Of a stretch of DNA of 64,000 nucleotides, positions 1,817-55,060 are shown in pieces. The notes beneath the pieces were generated by a model. The model did no database searches. It worked only from the letters and a program-made list of their open reading frames with translations, and was not told where the DNA came from. How positions within the stretch are numbered: the first letter of the stretch is position 1; each line of letters begins with the position of its first letter. The stretch spans positions 4,663 through 68,662 of the forward strand of contig CAZNUU010000004.1 of the NCBI GenBank assembly GCA_964576615.1. The letters are read 5' to 3'. The DNA comes from an uncultured Candidatus Saccharibacteria bacterium (lineage in GTDB: Bacteria > Patescibacteriota > Minisyncoccia > Phycocordibacterales > DATDWN01). The position numbers were made by a program, and so were the translations under genes.

Positions 1817-4174
1817 GTGACCAAGTCTAAAGACAAAAAGACACTAGTCCTCCTCGATGTGCACGCCATAATTCATCGAGCTTATCATGCTCTGCCCGAG
1901 TTCCAATCCTCTCAGGGCGAGCCAACGGGAGCTCTCTATGGTCTTTGCACCATGCTCATCAAGTTGGTTAAGGATTTAAAACCGGACTATCTTATTGCTT
2001 GCTACGATTTACCGGGTGAGACTGTTAGGCACAAAGTTTATAAAGAATATAAAGGCACTAGAAAAGAGATTGATGATGCACTAATAACTCAGCTTGAAAA
2101 ATCAAAAGATGTTTTCAAGGCCCTAAATATTCCGATGTATTCTCATCCAGGTTTTGAGGCCGATGACATGCTCGGCACAATTACTCAGGCTGTTTCCAAA
2201 GATAAAAACATTGATGTAGTCATTGCTTCGGGAGATATGGATACGATGCAGCTCATATCTGGTGAGAAGGTAAGAGTTTATACTTTGCGCAAGGGAATAA
2301 AGGATACTGTCATTTATGACGAAAAAGGAATCATCGAGAGGTTTAAATTTCCACCCAAGTACTTTCCTGATTACAAAGGTTTACGTGGGGATCCATCGGA
2401 TAACATAATCGGCATAGCTGGCATTGGCGAAAAAACAGCCGAGGAACTCATCGTAAAGTTTGGTTCTATTGAAGATATTTATAAAAGACTAAGGAAAGGT
2501 GAGAAAGATTTTATTAAGGCAGGTATAAAACCAAGAATCATCGAGCTTTTAAAACAAGGTGAAGAAGAAGCCTTGTTTTCTAAGATGCTCGCAACTATTA
2601 GGCGAGATGCACCGATTAAATTTAAATTACCTGAAAAACCTTGGGAGGAAGATGTAGATATTCAAAAGGTTGAAAAGCTATTTGTGGAATTGGAGTTTAG
2701 AACACTGGCGACAAAAGTAGCCGAAGTTTTATCAATCGAAGTTGAAAAAAAGGAAGAAAAAGAAGAAAATCCGGATGAAGCTTATGATACTGCTCTCATG
2801 CTCTGGGTAGTTGATTCTAGTAAAACTACGCCAACTTTAGAGGATGCACTTTCTTATACCAGGACAAATACTCTATCTGATGCCAGAAAAGCCCTAGAGA
2901 AAATTATTAAAGACCAGGATCTCTCATTTGTTTTAGATAAGATCGAACGCCCTCTTATTCCGATAATAAAAGAGATGAAAGAAGTAGGCATAAAAATTGA
3001 TGCTGATTTTCTGGACGATTTATCCAAAAAATATCATAGAGAACTAAATAGTCTTGAAAAAAAAATCTGGAAAATAACAGGTGAAGAATTTAATATCGCT
3101 TCCCCAAAACAGTTGGGCGAGATGCTCTTTGTCAAAATGGGTATTAAAACAAAGGGTCAAAAAAAGACAGCCACTGGTGGATTTTCAACCAAGGAATCAG
3201 AATTGGAAAAACTAAAAGACGAGTATCCTATCGCCTCACTTGTACTAGATTATCGGGAATTGGCAAAGCTTTTGGGTACTTATATCGATACTATCCCAAA
3301 ACTTTTAGATAAAAATGAGAGGCTTCACCCAGAATTTTTGCAAGCCGGATCTGCTACAGGCAGAATGGCTAGCCAAAATCCGGGAGTTCAAAATATTCCG
3401 ATTAAAACAGAATTAGGCAGGGAAATTCGCAAGGCTTTTATTGCGGAGAAGGGTTACAAGATTGTTTCATTTGATTACTCCCAAATTGAACTTCGGATCG
3501 CCGCATTTCTGTCCGGTGATAAGAAATTAATTGAGATTTTCAAGAAAGGCGAAGATGTTCATACGGCTGTGGCGTGCGAAGTTTTTGGGGTTAATCCGGA
3601 TGAGGTAACCAAGGCCATGAGATCTCAAGCTAAAGTTATAAACTTTGGTGTCATGTATGGTATGGGGGTAACGGCACTGCAGAAAAATATTGGTACAAAT
3701 AGAGAAGAAGCGCAGAAGTTTTTAAATGAGTATTTCAAAAAATTCTCTGGTTTAGCGGAATATTTAGAGAAAATTAAAAGGCAGACAAGTCAAAAAGGTT
3801 ATACCGAAACGTTTTATGGCAGAAGAAGATATTTTCCAGAAATTCACTCCAGACTCCCATTTATGAAAGCCGCTGCAGAGAGAATGGCAGTTAACGCGCC
3901 TATTCAAGGTACAGAGGCAGACATAATCAAACTGGCCATGATTGAGATCGATAAGGTCCTAGCTTTCAAAAAAATAAAAAAAGATGTGAGACTTTTGCTT
4001 CAAGTTCACGATGAACTTGTCTACGAGATTAAGGTTGATCTGGTCGAAAAAATTGCACCGGAAATAAGGAATATAATGGAAAATGTCCTGCCGCCTGGTA
4101 AGGCTTCTGGAGTAGTCATGGCGGCTGAAGCCAATGCGGGGGATAATTGGGGTGAGTTGAAGAAGTTGCTATAA
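1817..4174 (+). CDS. polA: DNA polymerase I. It has a 5' nuclease domain and a family A polymerase domain, and is short (785 aa).
   Basis: The 5' nuclease N-terminus reads LLDVHAIIHRAYHAL. The polymerase motifs DYSQIELRIAAFLSGD and QVHDELV are present. It has a probable GTG start. Confidence 0.9.
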   Translation: MTKSKDKKTLVLLDVHAIIHRAYHALPEFQSSQGEPTGALYGLCTMLIKLVKDLKPDYLIACYDLPGETVRHKVYKEYKGTRKEIDDALITQLEKSKDVFKALNIPMYSHPGFEADDMLGTITQAVSKDKNIDVVIASGDMDTMQLISGEKVRVYTLRKGIKDTVIYDEKGIIERFKFPPKYFPDYKGLRGDPSDNIIGIAGIGEKTAEELIVKFGSIEDIYKRLRKGEKDFIKAGIKPRIIELLKQGEEEALFSKMLATIRRDAPIKFKLPEKPWEEDVDIQKVEKLFVELEFRTLATKVAEVLSIEVEKKEEKEENPDEAYDTALMLWVVDSSKTTPTLEDALSYTRTNTLSDARKALEKIIKDQDLSFVLDKIERPLIPIIKEMKEVGIKIDADFLDDLSKKYHRELNSLEKKIWKITGEEFNIASPKQLGEMLFVKMGIKTKGQKKTATGGFSTKESELEKLKDEYPIASLVLDYRELAKLLGTYIDTIPKLLDKNERLHPEFLQAGSATGRMASQNPGVQNIPIKTELGREIRKAFIAEKGYKIVSFDYSQIELRIAAFLSGDKKLIEIFKKGEDVHTAVACEVFGVNPDEVTKAMRSQAKVINFGVMYGMGVTALQKNIGTNREEAQKFLNEYFKKFSGLAEYLEKIKRQTSQKGYTETFYGRRRYFPEIHSRLPFMKAAAERMAVNAPIQGTEADIIKLAMIEIDKVLAFKKIKKDVRLLLQVHDELVYEIKVDLVEKIAPEIRNIMENVLPPGKASGVVMAAEANAGDNWGELKKLL

Positions 4175-4289
4175 TTCAGAGAGCAAAAACAAATTTTCTG
4201 GAGCACGGATATTTTCTTACTGGAAAATTCCTCGTGCTCGCGCCGTCGCGCTCCCAAGTCTCCAGAAAACTTATTTTTGCTCTCTGAAT
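4174..4289 (+). repeat. Copy 1 of the conserved-core element. A ~56-nt core is flanked by a 30-bp inverted repeat with 2 mismatches, and the element fills the entire polA-holA intergenic space.
   Basis: The left inverted repeat attcagagagcaaaaacaaattttctggag lies at 4174-4203. The core cacggatattttcttactggaaaattcctcgtgctcgcgccgtcgcgctcccaagt follows. The right inverted repeat ctccagaaaacttatttttgctctctgaat lies at 4260-4289. The next ATG is at 4290. Confidence 0.7.
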
Positions 4290-5012
4290 ATGCTTTATTT
4301 AATTTTCGGTACAGATACAGAAAAGTCTCGCAGAAAGCTCCATGAGCTTTTAGATTCGGCGCAGAAAAAAAGACCAGGCTCGGAGCTATTTAGGATGAAT
4401 ACAGAAAGTTGGGTCGAGGGCAGGTTTGATGAGCTAGTTGTCTCCCAGGGTTTGTTTGAACAGAAATACACTGTTGTTTTGGACAATTTATTTGAAAGAA
4501 AAGAAGTAAAGGATTATGTGTTGGATAGGATTAAGGAAGTGGCAGAATCAAAACAAGTATTCCTCATGCTGGAAAGCAAAATTGATGCGGCTACTCTAAC
4601 TAAAATAAAAAAGGTTGCAAAACAGGTCCAGGAATTTGAAAAAAAAGATGAAGATAAGTTTAGAAAACCAACTGGAAGTATATTTTCGATTGCAGATGGT
4701 TTAGTAAGTAAAGACAAGAAAAAACTTTGGACAAAATTTATTGATTTTATTTACAAAGGTACAGCTCCAGAGGAGATCCATGGAATTTTTTTCTGGCAAG
4801 TAAAAAATATGATTATCTCTCTTAAATCCAGTACTTTAGCAGAAACTGGTCTTTCTCCCTTTGTTTATAAAAATGCCTTAAACGGTTCAAAAAATTATAA
4901 AATAGAAGAACTCCAAAACATGTCTTCCGATTTGGTACAAATGACCCACAGAGTTCGTCAGGGTGAAGGGGATTTGGAAATTATGCTAGAGAAGTGGATA
5001 CTTTCACTTTAG
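4290..5012 (+). CDS. holA: Putative DNA polymerase III delta subunit (HolA-like).
   Basis: The N-terminus MLYLIFGTDTEKSRRKL resembles the HolA N-terminal LYLLYGE motif. Its position after polA fits. It is short (240 aa). Confidence 0.4.
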   Translation: MLYLIFGTDTEKSRRKLHELLDSAQKKRPGSELFRMNTESWVEGRFDELVVSQGLFEQKYTVVLDNLFERKEVKDYVLDRIKEVAESKQVFLMLESKIDAATLTKIKKVAKQVQEFEKKDEDKFRKPTGSIFSIADGLVSKDKKKLWTKFIDFIYKGTAPEEIHGIFFWQVKNMIISLKSSTLAETGLSPFVYKNALNGSKNYKIEELQNMSSDLVQMTHRVRQGEGDLEIMLEKWILSL

Positions 5013-5042
5013 TATGTTAACTTTTTTGAAGAGGTGGTATTT

Positions 5043-5234
5043 ATGCGCCGAGATCGGCAATTTGCGGTTACTCTGTCGTCAGAGGAGGAGAAGAGGGCCA
5101 TAAGGCTTCTAAAGGAAAGCGAGTTTTCCATAAAAGCCATCGCTGTGCGACTGGGGAAGAATGAGGCTCTGATCCGTGACTTAAACCACCGAGAGCAGAT
5201 CAGATCACAAGGGTGGCATGGTCCTTCATGTTAG
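5043..5234 (+). CDS. Small helix-turn-helix-like protein (63 aa) with moderately elevated GC, possibly another cassette (B).
   Basis: The RBS GAGGTGG lies 5 nt before the ATG at 5043. The segment FSIKAIAVRLGKNEALIRDL looks like an HTH. It is followed by a hairpin terminator. Confidence 0.4.
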   Translation: MRRDRQFAVTLSSEEEKRAIRLLKESEFSIKAIAVRLGKNEALIRDLNHREQIRSQGWHGPSC

Positions 5235-5243
5235 CTCTTATGC

Positions 5244-5279
5244 AATGCGGTCACTGAAAATGGCCGCATTCTCTTTTTG
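5244..5279 (+). terminator. Hairpin followed by a T-run.
   Basis: The hairpin is aatgcgg-(13 nt)-ccgcatt, followed by ctctttttg. Confidence 0.45.
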
Positions 5280-5467
5280 TTGATTTTTAGCCTTTTTTCT
5301 TGTATATTTTTCGAGTAGCTAAAGTAATCATGGTCAGGGATATTCTGTTCGCCGACGCGAACAGAATTCCACGACCCTGCCTCACTTGTTTTTTCTACTG
5401 AAAAAACATAGTTCCGGCTCGCATAAGTCTTTGAGAAATCAAAGCAGTTTGATTACTCAAAGCTTAT

Positions 5468-5540
5468 GCGCCCATAACTCAGCTGGTAGAGTAGCTCCCT
5501 TTTAAGGAGAAAGTCGCAGGTCCGATTCCTGCTGGGCGCA
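5468..5540 (+). tRNA. tRNA-Lys, anticodon UUU.
   Basis: The cloverleaf has the acceptor stem GCGCCCA/TGGGCGC and the anticodon loop CTTTTAA. The T-arm is GCAGG-TCCGATT-CCTGC. No CCA is encoded. Confidence 0.8.
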
Positions 5541-5544
5541 CACG

Positions 5545-5575
5545 ACGAATAAAATTCCCTGAACGGGAATTTTTT
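5545..5575 (+). terminator. Hairpin and T-run immediately after tRNA-Lys. It is the first part of the conserved tRNA tail.
   Basis: aaaattccct-gaac-gggaatttttt. Confidence 0.6.
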
Positions 5576-5679
5576 CGTACGTGTGCGAGACGGAGCGCGT
5601 CGTCTGCTCAGGCAGACCCACAAGCGAGTCCGGGTCGGGAAAGTTTTTAGTAAAAAACTATTCCTGACCACATGACTTT

Positions 5680-6378: not shown

Positions 6379-6390
6379 CCAGGTTTTGCG
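6364..6390 (+). terminator. Hairpin plus T-run overlapping the stop codon.
   Basis: aacctggc-attta-gccaggttttg. Confidence 0.55.
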
Positions 6391-6509
6391 AACCGATAAC
6401 CCGTATCCACGGGCAGGTATGTAAAGTCTATATCAGTTAAATGAAAATTTCAAGAAGTTGGGGATAATGAATATATTATAGACACAAAAACCCTAATTAT
6501 AAGCTATAT

Positions 6510-6564
6510 AACTTGTGGGGAAATTAAAATGGCTGTTACAGCCATTTTAATTTCCCCACAAGTT
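6510..6564. repeat. Perfect 26-bp palindrome with a 3-nt spacer. It spans the predicted ATG at 6529.
   Basis: acttgtggggaaattaaaatggctg-tta-cagccattttaatttccccacaagt. Confidence 0.8.
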
Positions 6565-7050
6565 GGTGTACAGCTCACAAGTACAAACATTTGTGTCGCA
6601 ATTAGAGATTTTGATATAGAAATTAATGATTTTTTAGAGGGCATCAAAGTTCTTATTAAGTATATCAAAAAACAGAGAAAAAATAAATTTATTGGTATAA
6701 TTAATTTGATGCCGAATAATAGACCTACTCCTCAAGTACTAGAATTAGTTGACGCTCTTAGAAAAAGAGGAGTGGAACTAGAAGTCGAACATTGGGATGG
6801 ACACAAACACATTGACGTCTACATTCCCAAAGATAATTTATATATCGAAGTCGATGGAATGCATCATACAACTAAACCTGAAACTATTATTTCCGATTTA
6901 AATCGTGACTATTTCTCATTTAAGGATGGATTTTTTACCAAACATATAACAAATGAAGCTATCGATACTCATTTAGATGAGATAGCTGATGCAATAGCCC
7001 ATGTCGCCAAAAACGCACCTAATAAAATTGGTGAAAACCTACATTCCTGA
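6529..7050 (+). CDS. DUF559 / Vsr-like (PD-(D/E)xK) endonuclease-domain protein. The N-terminal extent is uncertain.
   Basis: The C-terminal segment HKHIDVYIPKDNLYIEVDGMHH resembles the DUF559 endonuclease fold. The first 12 codons are encoded by the palindrome, so the real start may be a downstream Met, for example MPNNR. Confidence 0.4.
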   Translation: MAVTAILISPQVGVQLTSTNICVAIRDFDIEINDFLEGIKVLIKYIKKQRKNKFIGIINLMPNNRPTPQVLELVDALRKRGVELEVEHWDGHKHIDVYIPKDNLYIEVDGMHHTTKPETIISDLNRDYFSFKDGFFTKHITNEAIDTHLDEIADAIAHVAKNAPNKIGENLHS

Positions 7051-7053
7051 TAT

Positions 7054-8793: not shown

Positions 8794-8816
8794 GAGTTAA
8801 TTTTATAACAGAATTT

Positions 8817-8916
8817 AACAAATTACATTATTTTGGAGACTTGCGAGCACGACGGCGCGAGCACGAGGAATTTTCTAGCAAGAAAATATCCGTGCTCCAA
8901 AATAATGTAATTTGTT
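8817..8916 (-). repeat. Copy 2 of the conserved-core element, in reverse orientation. It is flanked by a perfect 22-bp inverted repeat.
   Basis: aacaaattacattattttggag lies at 8817-8838 and ctccaaaataatgtaatttgtt at 8895-8916. Between them is the reverse complement of cacggatattttcttgctagaaaattcctcgtgctcgcgccgtcgtgctcgcaagt. Confidence 0.7.
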
Positions 8917-8920
8917 ATTG

Positions 8921-12328: not shown

Positions 12329-12363
12329 ATCATAATAATAACATCTCATGATAAAATAGGTAT

Positions 12364-12969
12364 ATGTCAGGATCTGTAGTTTCTCTTTTGCAGTATTATA
12401 AATACCCGATAATTTTTCCACTAGCTACTTTTGAGGGTCCGGTAGTTTCTCTGGCGGTCGGTTTCTTGGTTAGAGTCGGGGTATTTAAATTTTTACTGGC
12501 GTACCTTGTTATGATTACAGGAGACATTATCCCTGACAGCTTGTTTTATTTTATCGGTTATTATGGCAATGAGGCAAAAGTTGCCAAGAAGTATTTATCT
12601 AAATCTAAATTTTTTTCAAATCACTTTCCTGCAGTAGAGAGACTTTGGCTTGAGCATCCAGTAAAAATAATGTTTTTTGGTAAGCTGGCTTATGGTATGG
12701 CACTGCCTTTTTTAATCACAGCAGGAATGACCAAGATTCCGTATAAAAGATTTATAAAAATCGCTTTTCCTATTACACTTCTACAGTATTTTGTTCTAAT
12801 GGTGGTGGGGTATTACTTAGGATCTTTATATGGGGGAGCCACAAAATATGTTGAGTGGTTTTATTTCGTCTTTGCATTAGTCGTTGTTGTATTCATGTTG
12901 GTTTATCTAGTCAAATTTGCTAGGAGAAATATTGCCAAAATAGAAAAAGAGGCGGAGTTAGGGAAATAA
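12364..12969 (+). CDS. DedA / SNARE-associated family membrane protein.
   Basis: FEGPVVSLAVGFL ... ITGDIIPDSLFYFIGYYG matches the DedA signature. Confidence 0.65.
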   Translation: MSGSVVSLLQYYKYPIIFPLATFEGPVVSLAVGFLVRVGVFKFLLAYLVMITGDIIPDSLFYFIGYYGNEAKVAKKYLSKSKFFSNHFPAVERLWLEHPVKIMFFGKLAYGMALPFLITAGMTKIPYKRFIKIAFPITLLQYFVLMVVGYYLGSLYGGATKYVEWFYFVFALVVVVFMLVYLVKFARRNIAKIEKEAELGK

Positions 12970-19636: not shown

Positions 19637-19708
19637 GCTCTCGTAGTTCAATGGATAGAACCGCGGACTTCTAAGCCGCTGATGTAAGTTCGATTCTTAC
19701 CGAGAGCA
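19637..19708 (+). tRNA. tRNA-Arg, anticodon UCU.
   Basis: The acceptor stem is GCTCTCG/CGAGAGC. The anticodon stem is GCGGA/GCCGC with loop CTTCTAA. The T-arm is GTAAG-TTCGATT-CTTAC. Confidence 0.8.
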
Positions 19709-19717
19709 CACAGACGA

Positions 19718-19746
19718 AATAATTCCCTTGAAGGGAATTTTTCGTA
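19718..19746 (+). terminator. Hairpin and T-run after tRNA-Arg. It is homologous to the hairpin after tRNA-Lys.
   Basis: ataattccct-tgaa-gggaattttt. Confidence 0.55.
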
Positions 19747-19820
19747 CTTGTGTGAGGCAGGCTGAGGGGCCGAGCCGGGGTCGCGGAAAATTTCAGGAGA
19801 AATTTATCTGTGACCAATAT

Positions 19821-20321
19821 TTATCCTCTTGAATCCGCACTTGGTCCGTAAATTGATGGCACTTTACCGCCCATTGGCCTAAGGTGTGTTGAAAGTTGGC
19901 CGCGGTGATGGACGAGGTCGAGTAAAAATCCCCAAACAATTTTTGCTTTGGTGTCTTCCCAGTCTGCCTTGCCGTTTGTAAGAAGGCTTACTTTCTTTTG
20001 CCAATCATCCTCTGACATTTTTGCTACCAGGCCTTCTACTGTTTTCATGTTATTAATAAAGACGTTTGCTATTTCTTCTGCCTTTTCCCATTTTGGCTCT
20101 GGCCATTTAACAAAATCAACTTCTCTACCTTCCACAATTGCAACCAACATATCGGATTCAACCCCAAACGTGTGTTTCATCAGCTCCAGAGTTGTTCTCG
20201 ATCTCTCATCATGTTTGTAGGAGTGTTTAGAATCTGGAGTTTCTTCCACCGCCTTAAAAACTCTTTCAAACCTAGGCATCTCGTCTTTTAATGTTTCTAA
20301 AAAAAATTGTTTGTCGGACAT
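19821..20321 (-). CDS. DinB/YfiT-like (DinB_2) metal-dependent hydrolase family protein.
   Basis: It has an HHRGQ motif. 166 aa. Confidence 0.55.
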   Translation of the reverse strand: MSDKQFFLETLKDEMPRFERVFKAVEETPDSKHSYKHDERSRTTLELMKHTFGVESDMLVAIVEGREVDFVKWPEPKWEKAEEIANVFINNMKTVEGLVAKMSEDDWQKKVSLLTNGKADWEDTKAKIVWGFLLDLVHHRGQLSTHLRPMGGKVPSIYGPSADSRG

Positions 20322-20485
20322 TGTTATAAAAATTAATTGTTAATGTGTAACAGAGGACTCGAGTCTTACAGACTCTGTATACCTTTTCTGTTTTTTGTTT
20401 CGTAAGCTCACAAAAAACTATCAAAGGTCTTCGAGTCCTCACGAAAATGCTCCCAGCATTTTCTCAGTGCGCACATGCACACATG

Positions 20486-20558
20486 TGCGCACTAGAGGAC
20501 TCGAACCTCTGACCTACCCGGTGTAAACGGGTTGCTCTACCAACTGAGCTAAGCGCGC
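20486..20558 (-). tRNA. tRNA-Val, anticodon UAC.
   Basis: The acceptor stem is GCGCGCT/AGTGCGC. The anticodon loop is TTTACAC. The T-arm is AGAGG-TTCGAGT-CCTCT. Confidence 0.8.
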
Positions 20559-23953: not shown

Positions 23954-24481
23954 ATGTCAAAAGAATACTCGGTGCATCTTGAAACAAAAAAATATCAAAC
24001 TAAATACAGAACTGAATTTATTACAATCACAAAAGATGTAGAACACGCTATAAAAAGTTCTGGTATAAAAACTGGTACAGTTTTAATTCAAACTTATCAT
24101 ACTACTTGTGGTATTTGGGTAAACGAGGATGAAAAAAATTTAATAGGTCCAAGCGAAGTTTTAGGATACACCTCGGACTTGCGAAAAGTTTTAGATAGGT
24201 TTGCCGATCCCATGCATGACTATGGCCACAATGATGTTAACCATGCCCAAAACCCAAAAGGCAAACGGGATACTCATCTCTGTGAGCCAGATGAAAATGG
24301 GGTAATAAATGAATGTATAAATGGTCATGCTCATGCGCAAGCTCTGATGATCCATCCATCAATTTCTCTTATTGTAGAAGGCGGCAAGATCTTAAAAGGC
24401 AGATGGCAGGAAGTTATGTTAGTTGAGCTGGATCATGATAGGGAAAGGCAGGTGTCATTTCTGGTTAGTGGTATTAAGTAG
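23954..24481 (+). CDS. YjbQ/UPF0047 family protein.
   Basis: The motif TGTVLIQTYHTTCGIWVNEDE is present. The promoter TATAAT at 23940-23945 is very close to the ATG, so the transcript may be leaderless. Confidence 0.65.
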   Translation: MSKEYSVHLETKKYQTKYRTEFITITKDVEHAIKSSGIKTGTVLIQTYHTTCGIWVNEDEKNLIGPSEVLGYTSDLRKVLDRFADPMHDYGHNDVNHAQNPKGKRDTHLCEPDENGVINECINGHAHAQALMIHPSISLIVEGGKILKGRWQEVMLVELDHDRERQVSFLVSGIK

Positions 24482-24672
24482 CATAAATTCTCTTTCTCAT
24501 CATATTTCTCAGAGAGCACGGATATTTTCTTGCTGAAAATCTTCTTACAGAAGCTGTACACCTTTCGCTACTACGTGCTCAAGGTCTTGCGAAGCTTCCC
24601 TTCTCACCTCGTGATTGCGAAAGTGCGCTCCCAAGGCTCTCTTCGAAACATGATTCAACAAGATTTTATGCT
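24478..24672 (+). repeat. Copy 3 of the conserved-core element. It is an expanded variant with a ~100-nt internal insertion, flanked by an imperfect ~37-bp inverted repeat.
   Basis: The start of the core gagcacggatattttcttgctgaaaat lies at 24514. The end of the core gtgcgctcccaagg lies at about 24624-24637. The flanks agcataaattctctttctcatcatatttctcagagag and ctctcttcgaaacatgattcaacaagattttatgct are complementary at about 27 of 37 positions. Confidence 0.55.
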
Positions 24673-24687
24673 AAAATTACCATCATA

Positions 24688-28244: not shown

Positions 28245-28422
28245 AAAATTAAGGAGTGAAACGACTATAATTTACTTAACCCAAGCACCACTTTATTGAT
28301 TTAAAAAAAGAAGTATGATAACTTTCAAGAGCGAAATTATATCGAGAAATGGCACTTACTTGGTGTATAAAGTGGTGCTGGGTAATGATTTTTATAGTCA
28401 CTACGCTCGTTAAAAATCAACC
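28245..28422 (+). promoter_or_regulatory. Structured leader element, copy 1. It has conserved 5' and 3' modules, a covarying long stem and a possible 32-codon uORF. It ends 9 nt upstream of the rplK ATG.
   Basis: The 5' module aaaattaaggagtgaaacgactataatttacttaaccca lies at 28245-28283. The stem arms cccaagcaccacttta at 28280-28296 and aaagtggtgctgggt at 28369-28383 pair. The 3' module tgatttttatagtcactacgctcgttaaaaatcaacc follows. The uORF runs 28315-28413. Confidence 0.55.
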
Positions 28423-34533: not shown

Positions 34534-37500
34534 ATGGAAAAAGAAGAAAAAAAATTAGGCAAATCAGATGTGGCTTTGAAAGAAGAAGCTATTTTAGAGT
34601 CCTGGCAAAAAAATAGAATATTTGAAAAGACTTTGGAAAAAAATTCCCCGAAGGGTGAGTTTGTTTTTTATGATGGGCCACCTTTTGCCACGGGCTTACC
34701 TCACTACGGTAGTTTACTTGGCTCCATCGCTAAAGATCTTTTTCCGCGTTACAAAACCATGCAAGGCTATTATGTACGCCGTCGCTGGGGCTGGGATTGT
34801 CACGGGCTTCCAATTGAAAATTTGGTGGAAAAGAAATTAGGCCTTAAACACAAAAAAGACATTGAGGTTCTGGGTATAGAGAAATTTAACGAGGAATGTC
34901 GGAGCCAGGTTCTAACTTATGTACACGATTGGAAAAAGTACATTGATCGGGTAGCTCGCTGGGTTGATTTTGATGGCTCCTACAAAACCATGGATGCCAG
35001 TTTTACTGAAAGTGTCTGGTGGGCACTTTCCGAAATGAATGAAAAAGGACTTCTCTACGAAGGTCGTAAGGTCTTACTTTATTGTCCGCACTGCGAAACT
35101 CCTCTGGCCAAGGCCGAGATTGCTATGGATAACTCTTACAAGGACATAACAGAGGAGGCTGTGACAGTAGAATTCAAGCTAAAAGATGACCCTAAGACTT
35201 CTATTCTCGCCTGGACAACAACACCGTGGACTCTCCCAGGTAACGTGGCGTTGGCAGTTCATCCTGATATTGATTACGTAGTAATAGAGAAGAAAGATAT
35301 GGGTGTGGGGGACTTGGTTCGATTTATTCTAGCTAAAAAAAAGCTCGAGGATATTTTTGGTAAAGACGAATATAGGGTTGTTGAAGAAAAAAAAGGAAGG
35401 GATTTAGTTGGCCTTGAATATGAACCTCTCTATGAAATTGAAGCAGTTAAAAAAACAGGTAAAAAAGCTTGGTATGTGACTGGAGCGGATTTTGTTAACA
35501 CGGAAGAGGGAACAGGTGTAGTTCATACAGCTGTAATTTATGGGGAGGACGATTTTAATCTAGGCCAGAAAATTGATTTACCGATGGTGCCCCTACTTTT
35601 GCCAAATGGAAATTTTAACCTGGAGGCACCAGAGTTTATTAGAGGTGTCTATCTAAAAAAAGCAGAGGGTTTGATAAAAGAAGATCTCGAGAAGCGTGGG
35701 CTTTTATTCGATAAGAAAATGAATACCCACTCCTATCCGCATTGTTACAGGTGTGGCACGCCACTCATATACAATGCACTTTCTAGCTGGTTCATTGATG
35801 TTCAGAAGATAAAGGACAAAATAATTTCGACAAACGAAAACATTAATTGGATGCCAGATCACCTGAAACACGGACGTTTTCTAGATATCATGACTAACGC
35901 GCCAGATTGGGCAATAAGCCGAAATCGTTTTTGGGCTTCACCTTTGCCGATTTGGAAAGATAGCCAAGGGAATATAACAGTTGTAAGTGGTTTGGAAGAT
36001 TTGAAAAAGCATCTTAGGAAAACTGGCAATAAATTCTTTTTAATAAGACACGGAGGGTCACTCAGCAATGAAAAAAATGTAAGCAGTTTAGTGCCGGGTG
36101 AAGAAAATGATTGCCTCACGAAAAAAGGCGAAGATCAGGTTAGAAAATCAGCCAAAGAGTTTAAAGACAAGGTTGATTTAATTATTACCTCTAATTTTAG
36201 AAGGACGCAAAAAACAGCCGAAATTTTCGCTGAAGAAAAAGGATTAAGTAAGGAGGATATCGTGGTTGATGATAGCCTGCATGAATTTATTGATGAGGGT
36301 GACCGGGCTGAAAATTATGCAGATGTCAGAAAGAGGATGGTTCATGTTCTCTCGCGTTTAGACAAAGAATATTCGGATAAAAATATTCTGGTCGTTTCTC
36401 ACGAGTATCCATTGCGAGTCCTGCTTTCCTCCCACGAATCTCTCGACGATTTTGAAGAGAGTGAAAACTTTAATAATAAATTTACTTACCTGGATAATGC
36501 CAAAATTACCCCAATAAATTTTATTTCGCTACCCCGAAATATCTTTGCTCAAGTTGATTTTCACCGACCTTATATTGATGAGGTTCAGTTATACAACGAT
36601 ATAGGGGATTCTATATATAGAATTCCGGAGGTAATTGATTGTTGGGTAGAGTCAGGCTCCATGCCTTTTGCAGAATATAATTATCCTTTTGCGCATAAGA
36701 AAGAATTTGAAAAGAGAAGCCCTGCAGATTTTATAGCAGAGTACATACCCCAAACACGTACCTGGTTTTACTATATGCATGTCGTTTCCAACGCTTTGTT
36801 TGGGCATGAAGCATTTAAAAACGTTGTCACGACGGGGAATGTTCTTGCGATAGATGGTAGCAAAATGAGTAAATCAAAAAATAATTATACCGATCCGCTT
36901 ATATTAATGGATAAATTTGGCGCAGATTCGTTACGCTACTATTTGACGACCAGTGTAGTGATGCAAGCAGAAGATTTGGCTTTTTCGGATAAGGATGTGC
37001 AAGAAATTCACCAGAGGCTTCTAAATATTTTGAGAAATGTTGCGGTATTTTACGAGACTTATAAAAGTGATTCAGAGCCAAAATTAAATCACGAGAATGT
37101 TTTAGACAAATGGATATCTATGCGCCTCAAACAATTGAGGGATGAAACCACGGTAAATTTAGATAGATTTGATTCAATCCGAGCTGGCAGACCGCTTAAG
37201 CAGCTTGTGGATGATTTGTCTACTTGGTATTTGAGAAGATCTAGAGAGCGTTTAAAGATGGGCGGAGAAGAGGGGGAGAAAGCACTCCAGCATTTAGCCT
37301 TTATTCTCGGGGAGCTATCAAAGCTTATTGCACCGTTTGTGCCGTATGTTGCTGAGGAAATTTACCAGAAAGTTAAAGGCAAAAGAGGCCTACAAAGTGT
37401 GCATTTAGAAAGTTGGCCAGAAATGAGGGATGTAAATGTTGAACCAGATTTTCTAGCTATCATGTCTAATACCAGAGAAATAGTAACTCAAGCTCTCGAG

Positions 37501-37914
37501 TTAAGGCAGGAGGCTAATATAAAGGTGCGTCAACCCCTGGCGTCACTCACTATTCCTGAGAGTTTGCCAAAAGAGTTTTTGGAAATTTTACGAGATGAAG
37601 TTAATGTCAAAGAGGTAAAAGTTGGTGGTGATTTAAATCTTGATACTAATTTAACCCCCGAACTTCTCGCGGAGGGGCTGGTACGGGATGTTATAAGAGG
37701 GATTCAAGATGTGAGAAAAACAGAAGGTTTAAATCCAAATCAAAAGATAAAGATAGTTGCTCATGCCGATAAGGAGTTAGAAAAAATGATTAATTCAAAT
37801 TTAAGCCAAATTAAACAGCCGACTCAGGTATCTGGCGTTTCTTTCTCGAGAGAAGAACAAAAACATAAAATTGCACTTGAAAAAAACAAACTCTCTGTTT
37901 CAATAGAGAAGTAA
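34534..37914 (+). CDS. ileS: Isoleucine--tRNA ligase with an inserted histidine-phosphatase (PGAM-like) domain.
   Basis: The HIGH-class motif PHYGS and the KMSKS motif are present. WAISRNRFWASPLPIW is present. The insert between that and DCWVESGSMPFA carries FLIRHGGSLSNEKN and VVSHEYPLRVLL, which are the RHG and SH motifs of histidine phosphatases. Confidence 0.85.
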   Translation: MEKEEKKLGKSDVALKEEAILESWQKNRIFEKTLEKNSPKGEFVFYDGPPFATGLPHYGSLLGSIAKDLFPRYKTMQGYYVRRRWGWDCHGLPIENLVEKKLGLKHKKDIEVLGIEKFNEECRSQVLTYVHDWKKYIDRVARWVDFDGSYKTMDASFTESVWWALSEMNEKGLLYEGRKVLLYCPHCETPLAKAEIAMDNSYKDITEEAVTVEFKLKDDPKTSILAWTTTPWTLPGNVALAVHPDIDYVVIEKKDMGVGDLVRFILAKKKLEDIFGKDEYRVVEEKKGRDLVGLEYEPLYEIEAVKKTGKKAWYVTGADFVNTEEGTGVVHTAVIYGEDDFNLGQKIDLPMVPLLLPNGNFNLEAPEFIRGVYLKKAEGLIKEDLEKRGLLFDKKMNTHSYPHCYRCGTPLIYNALSSWFIDVQKIKDKIISTNENINWMPDHLKHGRFLDIMTNAPDWAISRNRFWASPLPIWKDSQGNITVVSGLEDLKKHLRKTGNKFFLIRHGGSLSNEKNVSSLVPGEENDCLTKKGEDQVRKSAKEFKDKVDLIITSNFRRTQKTAEIFAEEKGLSKEDIVVDDSLHEFIDEGDRAENYADVRKRMVHVLSRLDKEYSDKNILVVSHEYPLRVLLSSHESLDDFEESENFNNKFTYLDNAKITPINFISLPRNIFAQVDFHRPYIDEVQLYNDIGDSIYRIPEVIDCWVESGSMPFAEYNYPFAHKKEFEKRSPADFIAEYIPQTRTWFYYMHVVSNALFGHEAFKNVVTTGNVLAIDGSKMSKSKNNYTDPLILMDKFGADSLRYYLTTSVVMQAEDLAFSDKDVQEIHQRLLNILRNVAVFYETYKSDSEPKLNHENVLDKWISMRLKQLRDETTVNLDRFDSIRAGRPLKQLVDDLSTWYLRRSRERLKMGGEEGEKALQHLAFILGELSKLIAPFVPYVAEEIYQKVKGKRGLQSVHLESWPEMRDVNVEPDFLAIMSNTREIVTQALELRQEANIKVRQPLASLTIPESLPKEFLEILRDEVNVKEVKVGGDLNLDTNLTPELLAEGLVRDVIRGIQDVRKTEGLNPNQKIKIVAHADKELEKMINSNLSQIKQPTQVSGVSFSREEQKHKIALEKNKLSVSIEK

Positions 37915-45767: not shown

Positions 45768-45768
45768 A

Positions 45769-46563: not shown

Positions 46564-46595
46564 TTCGACCCTGGTTATCCACAGAGAGGGGAAGT

Positions 46596-46650
46596 ATGGA
46601 TGGTCAGGAGTGGTAACGATCAGTGTCACATTTCCATCCATTTTTTTTTG
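46596..46650 (+). terminator. Hairpin with a long loop, followed by T9.
   Basis: atggatgg-(27 nt)-ccatccat, followed by ttttttttt. Confidence 0.45.
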
Positions 46651-46979
46651 CTGATTTTTGCAATCTTTTATCTCAAAGTAATTCTCAAAGGAGGTCTAAA
46701 AATGGCCGTTTGAACTATATGCAACATTACTAAACCTTAATAGGTCTCATGAAAAAATATAGATATTTTTTTGATGGTCTTTTTTTGAAAATTTTTTCAG
46801 AATTCATAACTTTTGGACTCACTAGTTTAGTTTTTTTAATTAGATTTGAGCCAAAAAAATACCTAAATTTTCCAACATTTTCTTAGGGGGTCTTTTTACC
46901 AAAAAAAGGCTTATTTATAGGCAAATAAGTGATAAAATATATATAAATCGCTGTCCGTTGGACCGATATTAATTCACTC

Positions 46980-50801: not shown

Positions 50802-50826
50802 ATCGTCCTATGGTAGTCTTTTTGGA

Positions 50827-51354
50827 ATGGAAGGGGATTTTAACAAGGAAAAACAAGGCAAAAATGACGAGGTTCTAGTTTATGAAGTCTCGTATATTCT
50901 CCTACCTCATATAAATTCCGGGGATGTTCCAGCAAAAGCGGATTCACTAAAGAACGAAATAATCTCCCTGGGCGGCGAGATTATTTCAGGAGAGAACCCA
51001 GTCCTAATTGAACTGTCTTATCCAATGGTCAAAACCGTTGGTGCTACTCGTAATAAAGTTACATCTGGTTATTTTGGCTGGCTAAAGTTTGAACTAAAAA
51101 GAGGGGAGGAGGCGGGGATATTAAAGGTGAAGAAAATGTTAGATGGCAATAGTGATATTGTTCGATTTCTCCTAATAAACACTGTTAGAGAAAACACACT
51201 GCTTAACGGCAAGATGGTTTTAGTAAATGAGGAGAAAGAAAAGAAATCTCCAGACGAAGAGGTGCCTTATGAAGGCGAAAGTACAGAAGTAGTTGAAGAG
51301 AAAAGTACAACCGAAGATATTGATAAGAGTATTGATGATTTAGTAATTGTTTAG
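50827..51354 (+). CDS. rpsF: 30S ribosomal protein S6, with a C-terminal acidic extension.
   Basis: YEVSYILLPHINSGDVPAKADSLKNEI...LIELSYPM is S6-like. The start was taken at MEGDF, because the longer ORF overlaps the upstream gene. Confidence 0.7.
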   Translation: MEGDFNKEKQGKNDEVLVYEVSYILLPHINSGDVPAKADSLKNEIISLGGEIISGENPVLIELSYPMVKTVGATRNKVTSGYFGWLKFELKRGEEAGILKVKKMLDGNSDIVRFLLINTVRENTLLNGKMVLVNEEKEKKSPDEEVPYEGESTEVVEEKSTTEDIDKSIDDLVIV

Positions 51355-51571
51355 AAAATTAAGGAGTGAAACGACTATAATTTACTTAACCCAGCCCCAC
51401 TTTTGGTAAAAAATGAAACAAAATATAAAACAAACAAATAGTGAAAAAATCTCTAGCGACGCGCGAAGGAATACTTCGGCCCTATTCGGGCCAGCGTCGA
51501 GGAATAGTTTACTAGCAAAAGTGGGGCTGGGTGAAGATTTTTATAATCGCTTCGCTCATTAAAAATCAATC
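51355..51571 (+). promoter_or_regulatory. Structured leader element, copy 2. It has the same 5' and 3' modules as 28245-28422, and a possible 49-codon uORF at 51413-51562. It ends 9 nt upstream of the ssb ATG.
   Basis: The 5' module aaaattaaggagtgaaacgactataatttacttaaccca lies at 51355-51393. The covarying arms cccagccccactttt and aaaagtggggctggg pair. The 3' module agatttttataatcgcttcgctcattaaaaatcaatc follows. Confidence 0.55.
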
Positions 51572-52009
51572 ATGTATTTAAACAAAGCACTGATTATAGG
51601 AAATTTAACTAGGGATCCAGAGATGAGGTCTTTGCCGTCTGGCGTAAAAGTATCGAGCTTTTCGGTGGCCACAAACCGAGTCTGGAAAGATAAAAACGGT
51701 GTTAAACAAGAAAATGTTGATTATCACAACGTGGTTGTCTTTGGAAAACAAGCGGATATTGTTTCGCAATATTTGAAAAAAGGATCTTCGATTTTAGTGG
51801 AAGGACGAATGCAGACTCGCAGTTGGGACGATGCTTCGGGGGTGAAAAAATATAGAACGGAAATAATTGCAGAAAGAATCCAGTTTGGACCAAAGAGGGA
51901 AGGTTCAGGTGGCTACGCTGTGCCAATGCCGGAACATGAAGAAAAAAAGGCAATTGATACGATCGAGTATCCCGAAGAAGAAATTAATCCAGATGATATT
52001 CCATTTTAG
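51572..52009 (+). CDS. ssb: Single-stranded DNA-binding protein.
   Basis: The OB fold NKALIIGNLTRDPEMR is present. The acidic C-terminal tip DDIPF is present. Confidence 0.85.
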   Translation: MYLNKALIIGNLTRDPEMRSLPSGVKVSSFSVATNRVWKDKNGVKQENVDYHNVVVFGKQADIVSQYLKKGSSILVEGRMQTRSWDDASGVKKYRTEIIAERIQFGPKREGSGGYAVPMPEHEEKKAIDTIEYPEEEINPDDIPF

Positions 52010-52019
52010 GTGAAATTTT

Positions 52020-52220
52020 ATGAAACAAGATTATTTTAACGAAAACAATATAAAATACATTGACTACAAAGACGTGGATCTTCTTAAGAAGTTTTTAAAT
52101 CCGCATGCCAGGGTAATGTCTCGTAGACGAACTGGGGTTAGTGCAAAAAATCAAAGACTGTTAGCAAATGCCGTAAAGAGGGCTCGCTTCATGGGCCTAC
52201 TTCCTTTTGTAAGCAGATAA
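52020..52220 (+). CDS. rpsR: 30S ribosomal protein S18.
   Basis: [50 protein letters not shown] matches S18. Confidence 0.85.
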
Positions 52221-52227
52221 TCAAGAT

Positions 52228-52258
52228 AGGAAAGGGGCGACCAGCAAGTCGCCCTCTT
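52228..52258. terminator. Bidirectional GC-rich hairpin. Its stem gggcgac/gtcgccc is shared with the hairpin at 27327-27358.
   Basis: aggggcgac-cagcaa-gtcgccctc. Confidence 0.55.
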
Positions 52259-52260
52259 CT

Positions 52261-52467
52261 TTACCCAACCATCCCTTCTATTCTTGCGATCAAGGCGATG
52301 ACGTGCATTCTCACTATCTCGGGTTCGATGTAGCCCCAATCCGTACGATTCCGCATTGTCTCGAGGTACCTTCGTAGTTCCTCCAAGCGGGCCTTCTTGT
52401 CGAATCCGGCTGCAAGACCTGAAACGAATCGCATCTCGTCTCCAGTCGAATAAATGAAATCGCTCAT
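52261..52467 (-). CDS. GC-rich 68-aa protein of unknown function (cassette G).
   Basis: The minus-strand promoter TTGAAA-N17-TACTAT lies at 52482-52511. GGAGGC lies 3 nt before the ATG. Confidence 0.45.
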   Translation of the reverse strand: MSDFIYSTGDEMRFVSGLAAGFDKKARLEELRRYLETMRNRTDWGYIEPEIVRMHVIALIARIEGMVG

Positions 52468-52512
52468 AGAGCCTCCAGCGCAATAGTAATATTTTAAAGC
52501 TCAGATTTCAAG

Positions 52513-53094
52513 TTAGAAATTTGCACCACCAACTCTTTCTGTGTATTCGCCAGACTCGGTGTTAATTCGGATAGTATCTCCTTCTTTTATAAACATAGGC
52601 ACTTGAAGTTCTACTCCAGTTTCTACCTTTACACTCTTTGTGCCGCCTTGAGCTGTGTTACCTTTTACTGCAGGATGAGCCTCGATAACCTTAAGTTCTA
52701 CTTTTATTGGCATATCGACTCCAATCATCTTTTCTCCAAAGTACATTATCTCAATAACTGTGTTTGGTTTTAGAAATTTTCCTCGTGGTCCAATGACATC
52801 CTCCTTTAACGAAAATCTTTTGGATGGATCTTTTGGGTCGCAGAACCAGTATTCACCTCTGTTGTTGTATAGGTATTTTGCTTCTTTGGAATCAATTTCT
52901 GCTTCCTCTACCTTTTCAGACACATGAAAAGATCTCTCGGTTACTTTGCCAGTAATAAGATTTTTTAGTTTCGTAGCGTTAACTGGTTTTCTTTGCTGTT
53001 TTCTAAAAACATGGGCGTCAATAACTTCCCATGGTTCTCCATCGAGAACTATGTATTTTCGAAGTGTAACCTCACTGTAATCTAGCATTGCCAT
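52513..53094 (-). CDS. efp: Elongation factor P.
   Basis: RKYIVLDGEPWEVIDAHVFRKQQRKPVNATKLKNLITGKV matches EF-P, including the KPG/KNL loop region. Confidence 0.9.
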   Translation of the reverse strand: MAMLDYSEVTLRKYIVLDGEPWEVIDAHVFRKQQRKPVNATKLKNLITGKVTERSFHVSEKVEEAEIDSKEAKYLYNNRGEYWFCDPKDPSKRFSLKEDVIGPRGKFLKPNTVIEIMYFGEKMIGVDMPIKVELKVIEAHPAVKGNTAQGGTKSVKVETGVELQVPMFIKEGDTIRINTESGEYTERVGGANF

Positions 53095-53199
53095 CCCATT
53101 AGAGATTTAAAATAATAAATTTCCCGGTCGATCTTCGTTAGCTGAATCTCTAACGGGACAAGTAGGGGAATAATAGCTAATTTAAGCCATTTTATCTAC

Positions 53200-53235
53200 T
53201 TGACATTTTATAATATATATTTACAATGTGGTTTA
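53200..53235 (+). promoter_or_regulatory. Promoter of cassette H: TTGACA, a 16-nt spacer, then TACAAT.
   Basis: TTGACA lies at 53200-53205. The -10 element is TACAAT. GGAGGT lies before the ATG at 53248. Confidence 0.5.
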
Positions 53236-53247
53236 GGAGGTCGAAGT

Positions 53248-53436
53248 ATGAGATGGTTCGTAAAACGCATTCGTGGTGCCCAGGAGCACGTTGTGGGATT
53301 CGCAAACGACCACAATCTCAAACCGGGCGAGCTACTCGTCATCTCGTCAGATCCAGGAGAGTACAGCCGCTTTGGCGGTGGTCGGGAAGCTTCGGTTCTG
53401 CTAATGTACTACGCAGAAAAGGAGCTCGAGTCATGA
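53248..53436 (+). CDS. GC-rich 62-aa protein, first gene of cassette H.
   Basis: The protein reads MRWFVKRIRGAQEHVVGFANDHNLKPGELLVISSDPGEYSRF... Its stop overlaps the next ATG in an ATGA arrangement. Confidence 0.45.
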   Translation: MRWFVKRIRGAQEHVVGFANDHNLKPGELLVISSDPGEYSRFGGGREASVLLMYYAEKELES

Positions 53437-53591
53437 CTCGAAGAATTGTCGGAGGATTTCTCGTCCTCGGTGCGATCATTATGGGAGTCATTCAGTATCG
53501 AACAGACAATCGTGATCTCATCGTGATCGGTGGTCTCACACTCGGTGTCGGGCTCATTCTGCTCTTCCCCAAAAGACAAGGCGTCTTGTAG
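53433..53591 (+). CDS. GC-rich 52-aa two-TM membrane peptide, second gene of cassette H.
   Basis: The protein reads MTRRIVGGFLVLGAIIMGVIQYRTDNRDLIVIGGLTLGVGLILLFPKRQGVL. Confidence 0.45.
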   Translation: MTRRIVGGFLVLGAIIMGVIQYRTDNRDLIVIGGLTLGVGLILLFPKRQGVL

Positions 53592-53856
53592 CCGGTCAGG
53601 CAGAAGCTTGCAAAGCGAGTTTCATAGCTTGGCCGGTTTTCTGCATTTAAATACTTGAGTGAAAATACTCTTTTATAAAACATTGCACAGGAGCTTAGAA
53701 AATAAAAGCAAATTAGAAAGCTGAAGGCATTGTTTGAGCGTAGCGAGTTTGCCGAGAAGCTCAGTCTAATTTGCGCATTATTTTCTTGAGCGACGAGCAT
53801 GGTAAAACTTCAGTAGAAGTTTATACGCGTTTTGCAAAAGAGTATTTGAACGACTA

Positions 53857-54972
53857 TTAGCCCTCGGCTTCCATCCCACCAGTACCTGGAACCATTGATC
53901 CACCGTTTTTCTTTAATCCAGCACGGATTTCTTTTAATATTGAGTCAGCAACTTTTTTATTTTCTTTATCTTTCAAAAATTGTCGTGTAGCATCGTAACC
54001 GCGGCCAAGTTTAACTTCACCAAACGAGTAGCTTGTGCCAGTTTTAGAAATTATGCCCATTTTCTCACCTAGGGCAATAAGTTCACCCTCACGCGAAATT
54101 CCTTCGTTATACATGAGGTCAAACTCTGTTTGTTTAAATGGTGCTGCCACTTTGTTTTTAACAACTTTAACTCTTATGCGTCCACCCATGACTTCTTCAC
54201 CTTTTTTTATTTGGGCAATTCGGCGGATATCTAATCGAACAGATGTGTAAAATTTGAGAGCTTTTCCGCCTGGAGTTGTCTCCGGATTACCAAACATTAC
54301 TCCTATCTGCATCCTGATCTGATTGAGGAAAATAACTATTGTTTTAGACTTGGCTACGATGGCGGTTAATTTGCGTAGAGCTTGAGACATTAGTCTGGCC
54401 TGCTTACCAACATGATGAGCTCCCATATCTCCCTCGATTTCATCTTTTGGTGTCAGAGCCGCAACAGAGTCAACAACAATTACATCGATTTTCCCGGAGC
54501 GAACAAGTGAATCCACGATTTCCAGGGCTTGTTCGCCATTATCCGGTTGAGAAATAAGTAAGTGATCTATATTTACACCGATTCTCTTGGCATATTCTGG
54601 ATCCATAGCATGTTCTGCGTCTATGAAGGCACAAATACCATCTTTTTTTTGAGCCTCGGCTATTACGTGAAGTGAAAGTGTTGTTTTACCAGATGATTCC
54701 GGCCCAAAAATCTCAATTATCCTCCCACGTGGCAGACCACCAACTCCAAGTGCCGCATCCAGACCAATTGACCCAGTTGATACTGCGTTTATATCGACAT
54801 GTGGCTTTTCGCCGAGCATCATGATGGAGTCATCGCCAAATTTTGTTTTTATTTCGCGAAGGGTATTATCAATGCTCACTTTTTCACCTCGACTAGGCAT
54901 TTCCCCGCCTGCGCGGGCAGTTTTTTCTGATTTTTGTTTTGATTTCATTTTTTTAGGATTTCGTTGAGCCAT
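53857..54972 (-). CDS. recA: Recombinase A.
   Basis: The Walker A motif [13 protein letters not shown] is present. [36 protein letters not shown] is present. The start was set at MAQRN (complement 54970-54972). The longer ORF would run through the repeat element. Confidence 0.9.
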
Positions 54973-55060
54973 AATTTTTCTGGCGCCTTGGGAGCGCGAC
55001 GGCGCGAGCACGAGGAATTTTCTAGCAAGAAAATATCCGTGCGCAAGAAAAATTATGGGG
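54969..55060 (-). repeat. Copy 4 of the conserved-core element, in reverse orientation. It is flanked by an 18-bp inverted repeat with 1 mismatch. The recA start codon lies inside the element end.
   Basis: ccataatttttctggcgc lies at 54969-54986 and gcgcaagaaaaattatgg at 55043-55060. The core is the reverse complement of acggatattttcttgctagaaaattcctcgtgctcgcgccgtcgcgctcccaag. Confidence 0.7.

Follow-up and report, generated by a model that had tools for sequence, protein, structure and literature searches.

A 64,000-nt stretch of DNA from an uncultured Candidatus Saccharibacteria bacterium (contig CAZNUU010000004.1, positions 4,663 to 68,662 of the forward strand), referred to below as the window, was investigated for a palindromic element lying in the spacers between its genes. 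Four copies were located between co-directional neighbours: copy 1 between polA and holA, copy 2 between fpg and the gene of an LTD-domain protein, copy 3 between a UPF0047 gene and a methyltransferase gene, and copy 4 between an open reading frame (ORF) of 117 aa and recA. A 55-nt degenerate core was matched with 0 mismatches at 4204-4258(+), 8840-8894(-), and 54987-55041(-), and 0 matches were expected from 100 shuffles of the window. The 16-mer GCACGGATATTTTCTT was also present at 24516-24531(+), which was the 5' end of the expanded copy 3; this copy terminated at about 24637 in ...GCGCTCCCAAG, the ending common to the cores. A preliminary description of this DNA had reported a core occurring four times within inverted repeats, and three near-identical cores plus one expanded copy agreed with it, as did the repeats and the gene context described below. 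Its count of four was too low, however, since covariance model R2 found three more diverged copies and one doubtful copy in the window.

The inverted repeat of copy 1 (4174-4203 and 4260-4289) was 30 nt long and 93% complementary, that of copy 2 (8816-8838 and 8895-8917) was 23 nt long and 100% complementary, and that of copy 4 (54969-54986 and 55041-55058) was 18 nt long and 94% complementary; the flanks of copy 3 formed a long imperfect inverted repeat. Together with its arms and core, copy 1 formed a hairpin of 4174-4289, with (-) as the better-folding strand, which filled the spacer from the polA stop codon to the holA ATG at 4290, directly after the last arm base. Covariance models R1 and R2 matched this copy at 4193-4270(-) with 89-92 bits. 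Copy 2 was a hairpin of 8816-8917(+) with perfect arms of 23 bp, matched by both models at 8828-8905(+) with 96-99 bits. Copy 3 spanned 24480-24676(-); both ends of its core were those of the other copies, and the hairpin named P2 below was enlarged by an insertion of about 72 nt. R2 matched it at 24506-24647(-) with an E-value of 4.6e-6. Copy 4 spanned 54956-55072(+), including an outer pairing of 54956-54962 with 55066-55072, and was matched by R1 and R2 at 54975-55052(+) with 95-96 bits. The folding z-scores of the four copies ranged from -4.6 to -9.5 in comparison with shuffles. The annotated ATG of recA (54970-54972) lay inside an arm of copy 4, and this ATG and the first codons were in seemingly element-derived sequence. 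A second in-frame ATG was present 8 codons downstream (54948-54946), and the RecA N-termini of relatives were unrelated K-rich tails, so that the true start of recA is uncertain.

In its conserved fold, the element formed a three-way junction, and the folding strand was the complement of the one on which the core had been described (the original strand). On this complement, the layout was arm - AC - P2 - CGA - P1 - GUG - arm. Hairpin P2 consisted, in order, of U/A-G-C, GA, GCGC, a GAC(U)G loop, GCGC, GA, and G-C-A/U, and hairpin P1 of GGAAUUUUCU, an AGCA loop, AGAAAAU, a bulged A, and UCC. The GC stem covaried between copies (GCGC/GCGC, GGCU/AGCC, GCUC/GAGC, and others), and the T/A of cgTgc switched jointly with the A/T of gcAag, which showed that cgTgc pairs with gcAag. 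In alignment A1 (58 sequences), 90.9% of the cells were paired, compared with 75.7% in shuffles, and 251 double-change cells were counted, compared with 75 in shuffles. In the broader alignment A4, which was fitted to the model and included copies with a different P1 sequence, all 28 of the 28 pairs covaried. Even where diverged copies had an altered P1 stem sequence, they kept the residues of the junction, the loop AGCA, and the bulged A. The internal fold previously proposed was therefore real in part: the hairpin attttct/agaaaat and the GC stem were confirmed, but the enclosing stem gagcacg/cgtgctc showed no covariation and was broken in 20-25 of the 58 sequences.

The choice of strand was supported by the arms as well as by the core. 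On the original strand, the arm mismatches were A.C (35) versus G.T (13) and C.T (37) versus G.A (0); on the complement, these became G.U and tandem G.A pairs, as in CGAG/CGAG, UGAA/UGAA, and GCGAAGC/GCGAAGC, and the same GA/GA loop was present within P2. The complement was the better folder in 85 of 100 copies, with a mean of -56.9 versus -50.9 kcal/mol (p = 3e-14), and the original strand was thus not the one that folds best. When the arms alone were folded, the complement was better in 53 cases versus 17 (p = 1e-5), and this held in every gene-orientation class. In the window, the better-folding strand was antisense to the flanking genes in 4 of 4 copies.

The 19-mer GCACGGATATTTTCTTRCT, taken from the core, was scanned against one genome per species; the conservation of P1 is biased by this search pattern. 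The scan revealed 109 loci, about 100 of which had the full core and paired flanks. The element was carried by at least 40 assemblies, whose labels were Patescibacteria, Paceibacterota, Zambryski-, Wildermuth-, Nomurabacteria, or 'Saccharibacteria'; the last of these labels was doubtful in some cases, as locus L039 was syntenic with a Nomurabacteria locus and with the window. Seven matches in other phyla lacked the rest of the core and were chance matches, and viral contigs scanned with the 19-mer gave no match. A 1.8-kb contig binned as Flavobacterium sp. (L035, CAZSZH010000134.1) carried the element and was 99.4% identical to a contig of the Patescibacteria metagenome-assembled genome (MAG) ELA554 (L050), and judging from this identity it is probably mis-binned. 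With covariance model R1, about 30 additional and diverged copies were detected in these loci, at a density of roughly one per 23 kb. The element had a median length of about 119 nt (range 77-243 nt), and the 7 adjacent copy pairs all had the same opposite-orientation arrangement. When the whole window was compared with Rfam 15 at the gathering threshold, only six tRNAs were found, and copies 1 and 3 gave only generic miRNA-like hairpin matches far below threshold at E<=10. No published description of the element was found in literature searches, and the family is apparently undescribed so far. The only other assembly with the 117-aa protein of the window was a Logan contig of 3968 nt (L110, SRR12313479), which ended inside an element, the R1 match (3385-3424) being cut by the contig end. 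Short-read assemblies thus seem to be broken by the repeat.

Comparison of orthologous loci revealed sites with and without the element. Between polA and holA, L111 had TAAtATG, versus a hairpin of 115 nt between TAA and ATG in the window. In the block of ftsK, the 117-aa gene, and recA, the element lay before recA in the window and one junction further along in L033 and L039; the window junction orthologous to the L033/L039 site was empty (TAAatATG), and in L084 neither junction was filled and the 117-aa gene and recA overlapped (ATGgTAA). The junction of ruvB and ruvC was filled in L058, and was tight and empty in L121. The other empty orthologous sites were uninterrupted ORFs (uvrB, metG, and the methyltransferase gene). 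Every alignable empty site was thus a tight junction or an intact ORF and had no hairpin, and at polA-holA, uvrB, and metG both arms lay within the inserted segment. Because the empty sites were tight and both arms were inside the insert, there was no hairpin before insertion, and the arms belong to the element. The spacer of L131 orthologous to that of copy 2 had no significant hairpin. In the same locus, whose PolA was 72% identical, the polA-holA spacer (12353-12431) contained an unrelated AT-rich hairpin of about 25 bp with a z-score of -4.4. An origin of the arms by snap-back, that is, inverted duplication of the target, had been suggested by the tRNA case at 20430-20505 and by a degenerate inverted copy of recA codons; as a general rule it was ruled out by the position of both arms inside the insertions at polA-holA, uvrB, and metG.

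Copies were also found inside genes. Fifteen of 107 copies lay in frame and without stop codons within long ORFs, in both orientations, and they folded as well as the intergenic copies. In orthologous uvrB genes (72% identical), the element was inserted at two different sites, adding 52 and 42 codons, and the measured insert lengths of 156 and 126 nt were both multiples of three. The metG and methyltransferase genes of the window were uninterrupted orthologues of the interrupted genes in L072 and L083. Of 52 co-directional contexts, none was found to have a gene split out of frame; L058, considered as such a case, proved to contain ruvB and ruvC, which are separate genes. A search of a protein collection with the 42-aa peptide encoded by one insert gave no candidate, although such proteins may be outside the collection or missed by the word filter.

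The arms showed both inheritance and divergence. In L026, L042, and L072, about 130 nt were identical in three different ORFs of one MAG. In the pairs L016/L029, L067/L101, and L008/L028, the arms were 80-100% identical and the outer flanks only about 45-69%. The approximately 10 copies of ELA554 had an outer CTCG motif and an inner cctttttaga in common, and the 8-nt segment in the middle of their arms differed by single steps, some of which were still uncompensated. Within the window, the inner 11-14 nt of the arms were common to copies 1, 2, and 4, and the outer flanks of copies 3 and 4 were partly alike by eye (about 16 of 22 positions in one register, including the stretch of the annotated recA start). 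Flanks complementary within a copy and unrelated between copies had been described; the complementarity stood, but the flanks were not wholly unrelated, given the shared inner 11-14 nt. Arm sequences searched elsewhere in the window and the loci each matched only themselves and their partner, and no captured DNA was seen. The 'locus-specific' arms of the window are, as far as these alignments indicate, old arms that have diverged.

The explanation that we favour, and hold to be probable though far from certain, is that this is selfish DNA: a palindromic repeat of the REP, RPE (Rickettsia palindromic element), or MITE kind that is non-autonomous and is or was mobile in Patescibacteria. It is preferred because of the many copies, their gain and loss at harmless places, their survival in frame, their inheritance as whole units, the opposite orientation of neighbours, and the absence of a linked transposase. 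The mobile unit would be the whole hairpin, in which a long stem is closed by the conserved three-way junction. The comparisons presented here showed gain and loss at tight gene junctions and inside ORFs, with copies retained only where they are harmless, namely in spacers, where the stem brings stop and start codons together, and at in-frame, stop-free positions of proteins. Fresh copies carry the arms of their parent. In older copies, the core and the innermost 11-14 nt of each arm are retained; the arms look locus-specific because their outer parts drift by compensated substitutions. The active form may be single-stranded nucleic acid of the folded strand, most likely single-stranded DNA (ssDNA), because stable non-Watson-Crick pairs (G.U/G.T and tandem G.A) are formed on one strand only, whatever the gene direction. 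The enzyme acting on it could be one of the host or an unlinked one with specificity for structure, for example an HUH/Y1 transposase of the IS200/IS605 or RAYT kind.

Several observations weigh against this explanation. Pfam analysis of about 65 ORFs of the window revealed no transposase, recombinase, or HUH/Y1 protein, which upholds the earlier remark that no transposase was linked. No direct repeat of a target-site duplication was seen at three identical REEB237 copies or at the uvrB and metG insertions, where the boundaries are uncertain by a few bases, and the few copies with defined boundaries had no flank motif in common. Because neither transposase, target-site duplication, nor target motif was found, the case for mobility is drawn from comparative patterns only. 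In L047/L088, the single orthologous pair with clearly alignable flanks, the core was 93% identical, compared with 66-73% in the flanking coding DNA. The undiminished folding of the copies in ORFs is a sign of constraint, and the P1 sequence was almost invariant over many lineages, allowing for the bias noted above. Purely selfish DNA is expected to decay; to be conserved to this degree, copies must either be selected individually or be homogenised with one another. A high repeat density in very small, streamlined genomes is likewise unexpected for junk.

These same observations could be accommodated if the element were a structured nucleic acid that serves the host, the junction on the folded strand being the site or substrate of a conserved Patescibacteria factor and each copy being selected; it might work at the RNA level, as a protein sponge or as a module acting in antisense or in cis, or else as a DNA hairpin, linked for instance to replication or repair, with mobility explaining only where the copies came from. 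We regard this as rather unlikely. Covariation of all four helices, the residues kept in the junction, the AGCA loop, and the bulge of diverged copies, the tandem G.A and G.U mismatches on one strand, and the L047/L088 core being more conserved than neighbouring coding DNA are consistent with it, as are a diverged subfamily located downstream of tRNA genes on the tRNA strand in 3 of 3 cases and, more tentatively, the many neighbours involved in replication and repair (polA, holA, fpg, recA, ruvB/C, and uvrB). However, in about half of the copies both neighbours were encoded on the strand opposite to the folded one, and a conserved promoter is impossible, as the arms differ between copies; no convincing promoter-like hexamers were noticed in the core in a look by eye. 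The copies in ORFs occurred in both orientations, positions were not conserved between related genomes, and no Rfam family was matched. A bolder proposal, possible but doubtful in our judgement, is that the junction is the substrate of an undescribed, unlinked machinery of Patescibacteria. This would be either a new hairpin (single-strand) transposition that carries the whole stem without target duplication, or a host-adopted RNA or ssDNA module of roughly 50-100 copies per genome, bound by a factor and selected at each site, including sites in essential genes.

Two readings had been offered in the preliminary description, and a third was raised by the copies in genes. One takes the long stem for a structure by which polycistronic mRNA is stabilised or is processed in the manner of RNase III, with the locus-specific flanks accounted for by selection for pairing. 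The stems were indeed long and near-perfect, the stem base in spacers joins stop and start codons, and all four window copies lay between co-directional genes, two of them abutting the next start codon. This sample proved to be biased: among about 100 copies, the original strand was the coding strand of both neighbours in 35 and the opposite strand in 17, and the neighbours converged in 12 cases and diverged in 5. In the window, the copies folded less well on the mRNA-sense strand, the folding asymmetry was independent of gene direction, and some copies were located between the classical terminators of convergent genes, and so beyond them. Of 93 copies, 4 on one strand and 5 on the other had a T-run (>=6 of 8) after the hairpin, versus 2-4 in controls, which ruled out an intrinsic terminator. 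Replication direction showed a weak bias by GC skew (52 versus 28), confounded with gene direction. Because 15 of 107 copies lay in frame inside ORFs in both orientations, with stems undiminished, a cleavage or termination signal in mRNA is hard to uphold, and the processing reading, which is not supported by these data, is very improbable. Equally small is the probability of the other reading, by which terminators or other hairpins already in place receive a short, transposing core at their apex, the flanks being native arms. GC-rich outer stems with A- or T-runs, resembling terminators, were seen in L006, L096, L104, L068, and L067/L101, and other long hairpins with unrelated apexes occurred at 1737-1804, 28281-28382, and 51359-51562 and in the polA-holA spacer of L131. 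Nevertheless, the alignable empty sites had no hairpin and both arms were inside the insertion, arms were inherited between paralogues, and T-runs followed so few of the hairpins. What survives of this reading is the general idea of mobility combined with a structure that counts on a single strand; the pre-existing hairpin does not. Some rRNA genes of this group are reported to contain insertions that the mature RNA lacks, and the arms juxtapose both flanks, so intragenic copies might be removed from mRNA, intron-like or bypassed, with the paired arms joining exon ends. All 15 intragenic copies were in frame and free of stops, though, the 156- and 126-nt inserts were divisible by three, the co-directional contexts held no gene split out of frame, and no intron or ribozyme family was matched in Rfam, which makes removal from mRNA extremely improbable.

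As a palindromic repeat, the element can be compared with several known systems. RPEs are palindromes of about 100-150 bp in a reduced genome, where they lie in frame in conserved protein genes as extra peptide loops and also in spacers. Compared by description only, the 15 of 107 copies that formed in-frame, stop-free insertions absent from orthologues resembled them, in another phylum. We know of no RPE with a strongly covarying three-way-junction apex or with G.U and G.A pairing specific to one strand. The element shared with REPs and REPINs the nature of short multicopy palindromes that are mostly intergenic and sometimes in frame in genes, and for which single-strand structure matters. 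Like them, it had neighbouring copies in opposite orientation (the 7 adjacent pairs), and like some REP families, it had no linked transposase in the window. No RAYT gene was found among the window ORFs; the carrier genomes were read in 8-kb pieces. REPs, however, are simple hairpins of 20-40 bp with a conserved stem and an unpaired GTAG or CGTC tag at its foot, whereas the Patescibacteria element was about 120 nt long with a conserved branched apex and a variable stem. CGTC occurred only as the P2 loop on the original strand, and no tag was noticed at the stem feet of the aligned copies, which were read by eye only. Membership of the GTAG/CGTC-tagged REPs was ruled out by the median length of 119 nt and the branched apex. 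REPs have been reported inside uvrB and uvrA, their opposite-orientation 'HH dimers' are predominant, and some families are without a linked transposase (PMC3733652); RPE-1, RPE-4, and RPE-6 are mentioned in the same source (PMC3733652).

MITEs such as Correia, ERIC, and similar elements are likewise non-autonomous, about 100-200 bp long, folded into long hairpins, and co-transcribed with their neighbours, and they can carry or alter start codons. Their terminal repeats, to which the transposase binds, are preserved, and their insertion duplicates the target site, whereas the termini of the Patescibacteria element were variable, only the inner 11-14 nt and the centre were kept, and no duplication was seen in three fresh copies. 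As the outer arm ends differed between copies and no flanking direct repeat was seen, the element was not assigned to the MITEs. Miniature IS200/IS605 elements and HUH/Y1 systems were similar in having a strand-specific hairpin, no target duplication, no requirement for terminal inverted repeats, and an enzyme that can act in trans. IS200/IS605 elements, however, have separate left-end and right-end hairpins and a fixed target of 4-5 nt beside the left end, while no target motif was found in the few copies with defined boundaries and no TnpA gene in the window. Among palindromic repeats, the combination of a branched apex that is conserved with a stem that varies is apparently undescribed so far.

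Besides the four copies, the 8 matches of R2 on the 64-kb window were at 53670-53840(+), 19741-19823(+), and 5598-5677(+), with a doubtful one at 20430-20505(-). The first (E 6.5e-6) belonged to a diverged, expanded member of 53663-53847(+) with arms of 53663-53681 and 53829-53847 and a folding z-score of -5.4; it had a 93-nt insertion in P2, and its P1 was GGUAAAACUUC AGUA GAAGUUU A UAC. The members 19741-19823(+) (R1 E 2e-3, R2 E 4e-6) and 5598-5677(+) (E 3e-4 with both R1 and R2) belonged to a diverged 'GGGGUCG-P1-GUGACC' subfamily, which also included L055, L097, L098, L008, and L028. They were located downstream of tRNA genes on the same strand, the former 33 nt after tRNA 19637-19708(+) and the latter after tRNA 5468-5540(+). 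The doubtful relative 20430-20505(-) was a three-way junction (R2 E 1.5e-3, z-score -8.7) whose 5' arm and first hairpin strand were the T arm and acceptor end of tRNA 20486-20558(-), and its resemblance to the family was limited to the GAG-hairpin-GUG part. The position just downstream of a tRNA gene, on the tRNA strand, in 3 of 3 cases hints at an RNA role for some members; this linkage was confined to the diverged subfamily and was absent from the canonical copies. Hairpins with T-runs, resembling terminators, directly followed two of the tRNA genes (5537-5587 and 19705-19760). Their extended stems started at or near the tRNA 3' end (at 5537, within the last bases of tRNA 5468-5540), and a diverged family member lay downstream of each. 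At 20400-20530(-), the sequence after tRNA 20486-20558 was complementary to the T arm and acceptor 3' strand of this tRNA, and the three-way junction (z -8.7) would compete with the tRNA fold in the precursor.

Other hairpins were also observed in the window. A perfect 27-bp palindrome with a 1-nt centre (AACTTGTGGGGAAATTAAAATGGCTGT A ACAGCC...) was located at 6510-6564 and overlapped the predicted start of ORF 6529-7050, the first 12 codons of which would be an inverted copy of the 5' leader; this ORF had no Pfam match, and its real start may be further downstream. The entire spacer between rpsF and ssb (51352-51572) was one hairpin of 221 nt with 55-nt arms and a GC-rich branched apex (-78 kcal/mol, z -8.75). 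It contained the P1-like sequence ...CGAGGAAUAGUUUACUAGCAA..., and the covariance models did not detect it. Long spacer hairpins with arms of 15-22 bp and unrelated apexes of 38-78 nt were present at 1737-1804, 28281-28382, and 46754-46871, for example in the tsaE/polA and nusG/rplK spacers. Long hairpins of this kind, with a large apex, seem to be typical of the spacers in this genome. The isoleucyl-tRNA synthetase ORF (34534-37914, 1126 aa) had a match to His_Phos_1 (histidine phosphatase) at residues 502-585, inside the synthetase domain, which is an unusual insertion.

The genomes of Patescibacteria are among the smallest and most streamlined of bacterial genomes, and the repeat may occupy about 1-2% of them. 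It reaches core genes such as uvrB and metG, and it supplies or masks start codons, as with recA in the window, so that gene calling, protein models, and assembly are affected, the last as in L110, which breaks inside an element. The covariance model is ready for use in annotating Patescibacteria genomes. The element offers a clean case in which a branched apex, rather than the termini, is conserved and selection for one strand is clear, and it is a good starting point for tracing the enzyme or factor by which it is recognised, in a group with almost no known mobile-DNA biology.

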